A stretch of DNA of 64,000 nt from the NCBI RefSeq assembly GCF_046105845.1, contig NZ_CP151004.1. One strand, 5' to 3'. This document shows positions 27,620 to 31,922 of the stretch, one piece after another; within the stretch, counting starts at the first letter, position 1; each line of letters starts with the position of its first letter. The position numbers and the translations under genes are program-made. The stretch is from Escherichia coli (GTDB taxonomy: Bacteria; Pseudomonadota; Gammaproteobacteria; Enterobacterales; Enterobacteriaceae). The notes under the pieces are model-generated. The model did no database searches and was not told the DNA's origin. It worked only from the letters and a program-made list of their open reading frames with translations.

Positions 27620-28869
<1,250 letters not shown>

Positions 28870-29046
28870 TAAAGTATGTAACTGGTTAATTTACATTCTG
28901 GTCGCGTGCGCAAATACGCTTTTCCTCACACAGTTGTCAAGTGTTACGTTTAGATAATTGCTATCCGGAAAAGCATCTGCTATTTATAGCGGCCTCATTT
29001 TTCCCCCGAACATGGGGATCGATAGTGCGTGTTAAGGAGAAGCAAC

Positions 29047-29502
29047 ATGCAAGAAGGGCAAAACCGTAAAACATCGTCCCTGAGTATTCTCGCCATCGCT
29101 GGGGTGGAACCATATCAGGAGAAGCCGGGCGAAGAGTATATGAATGAAGCCCAGCTGGCGCACTTCCGTCGTATTCTGGAAGCATGGCGTAATCAACTCA
29201 GGGATGAAGTCGATCGCACCGTTACACATATGCAGGATGAAGCAGCCAACTTCCCGGACCCGGTAGACCGTGCAGCCCAGGAAGAAGAGTTCAGCCTCGA
29301 ACTGCGTAACCGCGATCGCGAGCGTAAGCTGATCAAAAAGATCGAGAAGACGCTGAAAAAAGTGGAAGACGAAGATTTCGGCTACTGCGAGTCCTGCGGT
29401 GTTGAAATTGGTATTCGCCGTCTGGAAGCGCGCCCGACAGCCGATCTGTGCATCGACTGCAAAACGCTGGCTGAAATTCGCGAAAAACAAATGGCTGGCT
29501 AA
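29047..29502 (+). CDS. dksA: RNA polymerase-binding transcription factor DksA
   Basis: ORF 29029-29502; start taken at [28 protein letters not shown] (151 aa); C4 zinc finger CESCGVEI...CIDCK. Confidence 0.95.
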
Positions 29503-29530
29503 TTACAGCCGTTCCATCACGTTTACCACA

Positions 29531-29558
29531 GGCGGGAAATGCTCCCGCCTTATTTTTT
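29531..29558 (+). terminator. Rho-independent terminator between dksA and gluQ
   Basis: Hairpin ggcggga-aatgc-tcccgcc followed by TTATTTTTT. Confidence 0.7.
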
Positions 29559-29568
29559 GTTCAACGAG

Positions 29569-30465
29569 ATGACAGACACACACTATATTGGCCGCTTTGC
29601 CCCCTCTCCTTCCGGCGAGCTTCATTTTGGCTCTCTGATTGCCGCGCTTGGCAGCTATTTACAGGCTCGCGCCCGGCAAGGTCGCTGGCTGGTACGCATT
29701 GAAGATATCGACCCGCCTCGTGAAGTTCCCGGTGCCGCAGAGACTATCCTGCGCCAGCTGGAACATTACGGTCTGCACTGGGACGGCGACGTTCTCTGGC
29801 AATCGCAACGTCACGATGCCTATCGCGAAGCACTCGCCTGGTTACATGAGCAAGGACTAAGTTATTACTGCACCTGCACGCGCGCGCGTATTCAAAGCAT
29901 TGGCGGTATTTACGACGGTCATTGCCGGGAATTACATCATGGACCAGACAACGCCGCAGTACGTATCCGCCAGCAGCATCCGGTCACCCAGTTTACTGAC
30001 CTGCTGCGAGGCATTATTCACGCCGACGAAAAACTGGCACGGGAAGATTTTATTATTCATCGCCGTGATGGTTTGTTTGCCTATAACCTGGCGGTGGTGG
30101 TGGATGATCACTTCCAGGGCGTGAGCGAAATTGTCCGCGGGGCAGATTTGATCGAACCGACAGTGCGGCAAATCTCGCTGTACCAGCTTTTTGGCTGGAA
30201 AGTGCCAGATTACATCCATTTACCGCTGGCGCTTAATCCACAAGGCGCTAAACTTTCCAAGCAGAATCATGCGCCTGCGTTGCCGAAAGGCGATCCGCGC
30301 CCAGTGTTAATCGCGGCACTTCATTTTCTGGGTCAGCAGGTAGAAACACACTGGCAGGATTTCAGCGTCGAGCAAATCCTTCAGTCAGCCGTCAAAAACT
30401 GGCGGCTCACCGCAGTGCCTGAGTCGGCAATTGTAAATTCAACATTCTCAAATGCGTCATGCTGA
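29569..30465 (+). CDS. gluQ: Glutamyl-Q tRNA(Asp) synthetase
   Basis: [23 protein letters not shown]... (298 aa) with class-I HIGH-like motif; longest ORF starts at 29539, inside the upstream terminator hairpin, so the downstream ATG is preferred. Confidence 0.85.
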
Positions 30466-30524
30466 GCTATGATTAGCCGCTATTTTTTTGTCCTGAATGA
30501 TGTTTGACACTACCGAGGTGTACT

Positions 30525-31922
30525 ATTTTTACCCGAGTCGCTAATTTTTGCCGCAAGGTGCTAAGCCGCGAGGAAAGCGAGGCTGAACAGGCAGTCGCCC
30601 GTCCACAGGTGACGGTGATCCCGCGTGAGCAGCATGCTATTTCCCGCAAAGATATCAGTGAAAATGCCCTGAAGGTAATGTACAGGCTCAATAAAGCGGG
30701 ATACGAAGCCTGGCTGGTTGGCGGCGGCGTGCGCGACCTGTTACTTGGCAAAAAGCCGAAAGATTTTGACGTAACCACTAACGCCACGCCTGAACAGGTA
30801 CGTAAACTGTTCCGTAACTGCCGCCTGGTGGGTCGCCGTTTCCGTCTGGCTCATGTTATGTTTGGCCCGGAGATTATCGAAGTTGCGACCTTCCGTGGAC
30901 ATCACGAAGGTAACGTCAGCGACCGCACGACCTCCCAACGCGGGCAAAACGGTATGTTGCTGCGCGACAACATTTTCGGCTCCATCGAAGAAGACGCCCA
31001 GCGCCGCGATTTCACTATCAACAGCCTGTATTACAGCGTGGCAGATTTTACCGTCCGTGATTACGTTGGCGGTATGAAGGATCTGAAGGACGGCGTTATC
31101 CGTCTGATTGGTAACCCGGAAACGCGCTACCGTGAAGATCCGGTACGGATGCTGCGCGCGGTACGTTTTGCCGCCAAATTGGGTATGCGCATCAGCCCGG
31201 AAACCGCAGAACCGATCCCTCGCCTCGCTACCCTGCTGAACGATATCCCACCGGCACGCCTGTTTGAAGAATCGCTTAAACTGCTACAAGCGGGCTACGG
31301 TTACGAAACCTATAAGCTGCTGTGTGAATATCATCTGTTCCAGCCGCTGTTCCCGACCATTACCCGCTACTTCACGGAAAATGGCGACAGCCCGATGGAG
31401 CGGATCATTGAACAGGTGCTGAAGAATACCGATACGCGTATCCATAACGATATGCGCGTGAACCCGGCGTTCCTGTTTGCCGCCATGTTCTGGTACCCAC
31501 TGCTGGAGACGGCACAGAAGATCGCCCAGGAAAGCGGCCTGACCTATCACGACGCTTTCGCGCTGGCGATGAACGACGTGCTGGACGAAGCCTGCCGTTC
31601 ACTGGCGATCCCGAAACGTCTGACCACGCTAACCCGCGATATCTGGCAGTTGCAGTTGCGTATGTCCCGACGTCAGGGTAAACGCGCCTGGAAACTGCTG
31701 GAGCATCCTAAGTTCCGTGCGGCTTATGACTTGTTGGCCTTGCGAGCTGAAGTTGAACGTAACGCTGAACTGCAACGTCTGGTGAAATGGTGGGGTGAGT
31801 TTCAGGTTTCCGCGCCACCAGATCAAAAAGGGATGCTCAACGAGCTGGATGAAGAGCCGTCACCGCGTCGCCGTACTCGTCGTCCACGCAAACGCGCACC
31901 GCGTCGTGAGGGTACCGCATGA
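30525..31922 (+). CDS. pcnB: Poly(A) polymerase I
   Basis: ORF 30504-31922 (TTG-initiated in track); pcnB is known to initiate at AUU, placed here at ATT 30525-30527 giving [22 protein letters not shown]... (465 codons); nucleotidyltransferase motif [10 protein letters not shown]. Confidence 0.85.

Follow-up and report, generated by a model that had tools for sequence, protein, structure and literature searches.

The dksA-gluQ junction of Escherichia coli: a known intrinsic terminator with an in-frame ATG in its loop and gluQ starting at the next ATG

The junction between dksA and gluQ has been characterized experimentally in Shigella flexneri, at a locus that is near-identical to the one described here (Caballero et al., 2012, BMC Microbiol 12:226, PMC3542578). 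An AUG within the S. flexneri terminator was already described in that work. In lacZ fusions, mutations disrupting the stem raised reporter activity more than 2-fold, and activity was about 10-fold higher from a construct reaching only to the dksA stop codon than from one that contained the junction (Caballero et al., 2012). A fusion that extended from dksA +58 to the gluQ start and lacked the dksA promoters stayed at baseline activity, hence gluQ is without a separate promoter, and a dksA-gluQ co-transcript was seen by RT-PCR (Caballero et al., 2012). Edman sequencing of the S. flexneri protein gave TDTQYIGRFAP, an N-terminus showing that the second Met initiates and that the protein has 298 aa (Caballero et al., 2012). 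Since 2012 it has been known that gluQ is preceded by a leaky terminator, is translated from the second Met and depends on the dksA promoters. Later literature on the mapping of the gluQ start site or terminator, as far as full-text search covers it, comprised only papers citing PMC3542578. As comparable layouts, the rpsU-dnaG and recA-recX junctions of E. coli have been given (Caballero et al., 2012). Both likewise carry a Rho-independent terminator between co-transcribed genes, the distal gene is expressed via read-through only (about 10% for recX), and its Shine-Dalgarno sequence is unusual or absent. They differ from dksA-gluQ in their genes and sequences, and the dksA-gluQ loop adds an in-frame AUG that misleads longest-ORF annotation. 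The expression platforms of preQ1 riboswitches and attenuators are also similar, in that a terminator hairpin is located immediately 5' of a gene for queuosine-related tRNA modification; however, the dksA-gluQ junction has no aptamer, no Rfam match and just 27 poorly conserved nucleotides upstream of the hairpin.

The window analysed here is a stretch of 64,000 nucleotides from E. coli. It comes from another E. coli lineage than the S. flexneri locus, but the dksA-gluQ terminator feature itself is identical: the same locus, the same hairpin, the first AUG in the loop and 27 nt between it and the second AUG (30 nt from start to start). The conclusions also agree with those for S. flexneri: the terminator is functional, the protein has 298 aa and gluQ is expressed from the dksA promoters. 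Evidence for terminator activity, for the absence of a separate promoter and for the N-terminus is taken from the literature, from experiments on an S. flexneri junction that is essentially identical to that of the window strain; the anatomy, conservation and annotation status are described here. We are highly confident that the junction carries the intrinsic terminator, or attenuator, already known from the dksA-gluQ operon of E. coli and Shigella, and that gluQ yields a 298-aa product from position 29569. All of the interpretation in a first-pass annotation of this DNA, including the refutation test proposed there, is already contained in Caballero et al. (2012).

The hairpin between dksA and gluQ

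The sfsA-dksA-gluQ(yadB)-pcnB cluster of E. coli occupies positions 28165-31922 of the window. E. coli strain VCSW7 shares 99.9% identity with the region 29000-30500, which has matches in 5,424 of 5,426 complete E. coli genomes. The coordinates of dksA and gluQRS in Table 1 derive from a RefSeq-annotated E. coli record with 99.9% identity, whose features were transferred to the window. Apart from position 29565, where the window has C and K-12 has A, the intergenic region is that of E. coli K-12, and GluQ of the window is 97.7% identical to K-12 GluQ, with His as residue 5 where K-12 has Gln. At the following gene, RefSeq places the pcnB start at 30525-30527 with the codon ATT, and the mechanical ORF list begins at TTG 30504. 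The ATT agrees with reports that poly(A) polymerase I is initiated at a non-canonical AUU.

Table 1. Features of the dksA-gluQ junction in window coordinates
Feature	Position	Strand	Basis and remarks
dksA CDS, 151 aa	29047..29502	+	Mapped RefSeq annotation; upstream gene whose promoters drive the operon
Shine-Dalgarno-like AGGCGGG before the loop ATG	29530..29536	+	Can pair with the 16S 3' end; sequestered as 5' stem arm
Terminator hairpin AGGCGGGA-AAUGC-UCCCGCCU, 8 bp, 6 G-C, 5-nt loop	29530..29550	+	Terminator scan, folding, conservation, S. flexneri experiments
ATG1, first ATG of the longest ORF, inside the hairpin loop; not the initiator	29539..29541	+	ORF list; Edman sequencing gives the second Met
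U-rich tract TATTTTTT, completes the intrinsic terminator	29551..29558	+	Unstructured region just 5' of the real gluQ start
ATG2, true gluQ initiation codon, without usable Shine-Dalgarno sequence	29569..29571	+	Anti-Shine-Dalgarno duplex -1.8 kcal/mol, spacing 0
gluQ (gluQRS, yadB) CDS as translated, 298 aa, glutamyl-Q tRNA(Asp) synthetase	29569..30465	+	PGAP, PDB 1NZJ/4A91, TIGR03838, Edman sequencing

The first-pass annotation had placed a strong intrinsic terminator with the stem ggcggga/tcccgcc and a T-tract at this junction, and its coordinates proved exact. The hairpin lies on the same strand as dksA, 27 nt downstream of the stop codon (TAA, 29500-29502). In the stem, ggcggga (29531-29537) pairs with tcccgcc (29543-29549), and an A-T pair between 29530 and 29550 makes 8 bp, which enclose the loop AATGC (29538-29542). 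Written as DNA, the hairpin reads AGGCGGGA-AATGC-TCCCGCCT and is followed by TATTTTTTG; the T-tract TTATTTTTT covers 29550-29558, and a U run, UAUUUUUUG at 29551-29559, stands immediately 3' of the stem. The terminator scan returned 8 pairs, 6 of them G-C, a 5-nt loop and the tail TATTTTTTGT. The G+C-rich stem-loop folds stably: positions 29526-29560 alone reach -15.1 kcal/mol against -6.6 ± 2.2 for shuffled sequences (z = -3.9), and 0 of 200 shuffles were as stable. The whole 101-nt junction folds at z = -1.5 only and is not unusually stable. The minimum free energy structure of the junction contains an outer helix around the terminator, in which CAUC/CGUU (29515-29523) pairs with AACG/GAUG (29563-29571) and covers the gluQ AUG, leaving AUG 29569 with P(unpaired) of about 0.1. 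This predicted helix is probably not meaningful: one of its pairs needs C29565, a position where K-12 and E. albertii have A, and the overall z-score is the modest one given above.

Conservation was followed within the species and beyond. Of 5,423 complete E. coli genomes, 4,980 carry the 60 nt at 29503-29562, which contain ATG1, without any difference; in the one divergent record that was inspected, SCU-111 (98.3% identity), a single nucleotide is deleted 5' of the hairpin, and hairpin and ATG1 are both kept. For the comparative set, a degenerate-pattern scan for the DksA C-terminus yielded 120 gammaproteobacterial loci, which were analysed together with two E. coli records and the window (123 sequences). 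gluQ is found immediately 3' of dksA on the same strand in 105 of these 123. Thirteen Enterobacteriaceae sequences were aligned, from Escherichia, Citrobacter, Enterobacter, Kluyvera, Leclercia, Pseudescherichia, Superficieibacter, Mangrovibacter and a MAG. The stem core GGCGGG/CCCGCC is invariant in all 13 (at least nine genera), and the loop occurs as AATGC, TTT, CTT, TTTAT, CCT, TCAC, TTTT, TCT or TGA, with flanks that also diverge. The 60-nt identity within E. coli, together with the invariant stem core across Enterobacteriaceae genera, shows that the hairpin is not a chance match. As judged from this alignment, the stem is supported by conservation and not by covariation. In the pair count over the 13 sequences, with one of them (L070) misaligned by 2 columns, 90.7% of the cells are paired and 2 pairs are changed on both sides, and the covariation score of the nearly invariant stem was matched by 47 of 500 shuffles. 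Covariation support is weak because the stem hardly varies. Escherichia, Kluyvera and Enterobacter sp. Bisph1 have a strong U-tract, and in E. cloacae, Superficieibacter and Mangrovibacter it is degraded; termination strength probably differs among genera with the quality of this tract.

On a broader scale, the 90 gammaproteobacterial dksA-gluQ spacers with a length of 25 nt or more fold with a median z-score of -3.1 against mononucleotide shuffles. Perfect hairpins, here defined by at least 5 bp, are present in 74 of the 90, and 47 of those 74 have a T-rich tail. These counts indicate that a hairpin between dksA and gluQ is general and that its sequence turns over between families. Two loci, from Klebsiella sp. 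BIGb0407 (L051) and Budvicia (L095), have a different, longer intergenic region with a 130-nt spacer from which the GGCGGG hairpin is absent, hence the junction has been remodelled in some Enterobacterales; the Klebsiella locus has a GGATGG/CCATCC hairpin near the dksA stop codon. In three Pseudomonas spp. (L032, L048, L086) the spacers are much longer, about 160-210 nt, and extremely structured, with fold energies between -78 and -100 kcal/mol and z-scores from -5 to -8; REP-like or other repeated palindromic insertions may account for them.

Read-through from dksA and its possible control

As shown in the S. flexneri literature, RNA polymerase coming from the dksA promoters mostly stops at the hairpin and U-tract (29530-29558), and the fraction that reads through is the sole source of gluQ mRNA. 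That gluQ expression depends on read-through from dksA was also proposed in the first-pass annotation, and this is borne out by the baseline activity of the promoterless fusion and by the RT-PCR co-transcript in S. flexneri (Caballero et al., 2012). On the read-through RNA the hairpin would re-form, burying AGGCGGG and leaving the loop AUG 29539 unused. Ribosomes initiate at AUG 29569 within an A/U-rich stretch past the U-tract and without a Shine-Dalgarno sequence, at a codon that is shown for the S. flexneri protein and with a presumably low efficiency. The outcome would be a 298-aa GluQ-RS made at a low level.

A different reading is that the hairpin, beyond being a constitutive leaky terminator, belongs to a regulated attenuator as its expression platform, with read-through shifted by a ligand, a protein or an sRNA according to growth phase. 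In stationary phase the junction-spanning RNA of S. flexneri increased about 20-fold, compared to only 1.3-fold for the dksA and gluQ amplicons, and the authors themselves raised riboswitch-like or protein-mediated control as a speculation (Caballero et al., 2012). However, the 20-fold rise rests on semi-quantitative end-point RT-PCR, and the authors' own riboswitch search was negative (Caballero et al., 2012). The geometry of the Enterobacteriaceae junctions would also be in line with such control: the distance from the 3' end of the hairpin to the gluQ start is fairly constant (13-23 nt), while that to the dksA stop codon ranges from about 12 to 73 nt. The hairpin with its U-tract could serve as a ribosome standby site, or the steady distance could simply reflect compact spacing. 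Loci with this constant distance (L021, L030, L057, L064, L065, L070, L087, L089, L104, L118 and L122) do not share a conserved spacer sequence. Against a regulatory element, the 27 nt between the dksA stop codon and the hairpin are too short for an aptamer and poorly conserved between genera, and the 101-nt junction fold is unremarkable. Moreover, a scan of 28800-30600 on both strands against Rfam families, preQ1 riboswitches included, gave no relevant match at E <= 1. The lone match was a chance snoRNA inside dksA, and a riboswitch or another known cis-regulatory RNA was rejected on this ground. Altogether we consider a regulated attenuator unlikely. A leader-peptide attenuator was likewise considered and rejected. 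ATG1 is in frame with gluQ without an intervening stop codon, so that there is no discrete leader peptide and no separate leader ORF, and the weak fold of the whole junction offers no convincing alternative structure.

A gluQ promoter of its own, in or after dksA, which would make expression independent of read-through, is most improbable in view of the baseline activity of the promoterless dksA +58 fusion (Caballero et al., 2012), on which the rejection rests because our consensus scan is insensitive, and of the mere 10 nt that separate the U-tract from the start codon. That scan found no sigma-70-like site on the + strand of 28500-30444 and misses the known dksA promoters too. A promoter-like TTCTCA-17-TATGAT is present at 30445-30473, where it overlaps the gluQ end.

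The start codon of gluQ

The longest ORF with gluQ extends from 29539 to 30465 and encodes 308 aa; it begins within the hairpin loop, just as the first-pass annotation had it. The next in-frame ATG (29569-29571), 10 nt past the U-tract, opens the 298-aa product (MTDTHY...) that had been favoured there, and several lines of evidence establish it as the real start: Edman sequencing of the S. flexneri protein, the PGAP annotation, the crystallised chains 1NZJ and 4A91, and the conservation of ATG2 compared to a loop ATG that is confined to Escherichia. N-terminal peptide evidence for gluQ had been proposed as a test, and the published Edman data have answered it with the second Met and not with residues encoded by 29539-29568 (Caballero et al., 2012). 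The ten codons by which the longest ORF exceeds the 298-aa frame belong to the non-coding intergenic region.

All 13 aligned Enterobacteriaceae sequences have a homologue of ATG2; a loop ATG in frame with gluQ is limited to E. coli and E. albertii. In the remaining genera, the frame 5' of the real start either lacks an ATG or is interrupted by a stop codon only a few codons away from that start. The family data are in agreement with the short form. The protein scores above the curated cutoffs for GluQ-RS (tRNA glutamyl-Q(34) synthetase), with 378.7 bits against 276.7 for TIGR03838 and 622 bits against 453 for NF004312. The TIGR03838 match begins only at residue 16 of the long ORF, and the 298-aa chain of PDB 1NZJ and 4A91 corresponds to residues 11-308 of the long ORF (E = 1e-202). 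Together with the homologues from other Enterobacteriaceae, both place the family N-terminus at ATG2. NF004312, a model of 306 positions, aligns from long-form residue 6, which suggests that its seed sequences carried the old long annotation.

The translation signals of the two ATGs differ, and in this respect the loop AUG could be taken for a genuine alternative start. Such a start would require an open hairpin, with the ribosome loading before the 3' arm is made and AGGCGGG serving as Shine-Dalgarno sequence; it would yield a 308-aa GluQ-RS and may suppress termination. AGGCGGG pairs with the 16S 3' end at -6.3 kcal/mol, compared to the far weaker duplex at ATG2 (Table 1). It was named a 'possible Shine-Dalgarno sequence' in S. 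flexneri, where the second Met has 'no obvious Shine-Dalgarno' (Caballero et al., 2012). However, its spacing to ATG1 is just 2 nt and its bases are fully paired, with P(unpaired) of about 0. The Shine-Dalgarno sequence of dksA, AAGGAG, is strong (-9.2 kcal/mol, spacing 6), and none is visible before gluQ in the other Enterobacteriaceae examined. The first-pass annotation had considered ATG1 implausible because of its position in the loop. That conclusion stands and the reason holds in part: the loop AUG itself is unpaired (P(unpaired) = 1.0), and it is AGGCGGG that is sequestered in the stem, which we infer to be the cause of the disuse of ATG1. The U-tract, in turn, might possibly offer an unstructured landing site for ribosomes initiating gluQ.

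Conservation of the ATG1-bearing 60-mer in E. coli, the occurrence of ATG1 in E. albertii and its annotation as start codon in NC_000913.3 could be read in favour of the 308-aa form. Within E. coli, however, conservation of ATG1 is expected regardless, as the same bases build the terminator, and the loop ATG is absent from all other sampled genera; in E. fergusonii, the terminator is present and a Met at that position is absent (Caballero et al., 2012). Neither TIGR03838 nor the crystallised protein contains anything equivalent to the ten extra residues. Edman sequencing yielded the second-Met product only, from a construct spanning the dksA stop codon to the gluQ end with a C-terminal His tag, overexpressed from T7/pET in BL21(DE3) (Caballero et al., 2012). 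The data concern the predominant band of this overexpression, leaving room for a minor 308-aa isoform. Such an isoform is unlikely because ATG1 is confined to Escherichia and its spacing is just 2 nt, and we judge genuine initiation at the loop AUG to be highly improbable. A related idea is that the Shine-Dalgarno-like 5' arm and the loop AUG, a combination found in Escherichia only, form a 30S binding site on the nascent RNA, and that 30S capture blocks the hairpin and sets read-through, perhaps with a minor 308-aa isoform. If true, this would couple GluQ-RS synthesis to the availability of free ribosomes and to growth phase, and it could account for the 20-fold rise of junction RNA in stationary phase; we give it a very small chance.

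With the known terminator and the start at ATG2 as the preferred reading, what is left concerns annotation. PGAP starts gluQRS at the equivalent of ATG2 in all RefSeq records that were opened, and in 10 of 10 spread matches to the 60-nt junction query no feature is annotated over the hairpin. The curated K-12 MG1655 record NC_000913.3 still has a 308-aa gene (b0144/NP_414686.3; 159186-160112, 927 nt) that starts inside the terminator loop. This ORF and the residue-6 alignment of NF004312 go back to older annotation and do not show that the long form is translated. Correcting the stale K-12 entry is the sole actionable outcome, a matter of annotation hygiene, and the dksA-gluQ junction is a clear case in which the longest-ORF rule fails beside terminators. 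As far as the comparison of sequences can tell, the widespread hairpin with its invariant core in Enterobacteriaceae points to a tight limitation of GluQ-RS expression that appears to be under selection.
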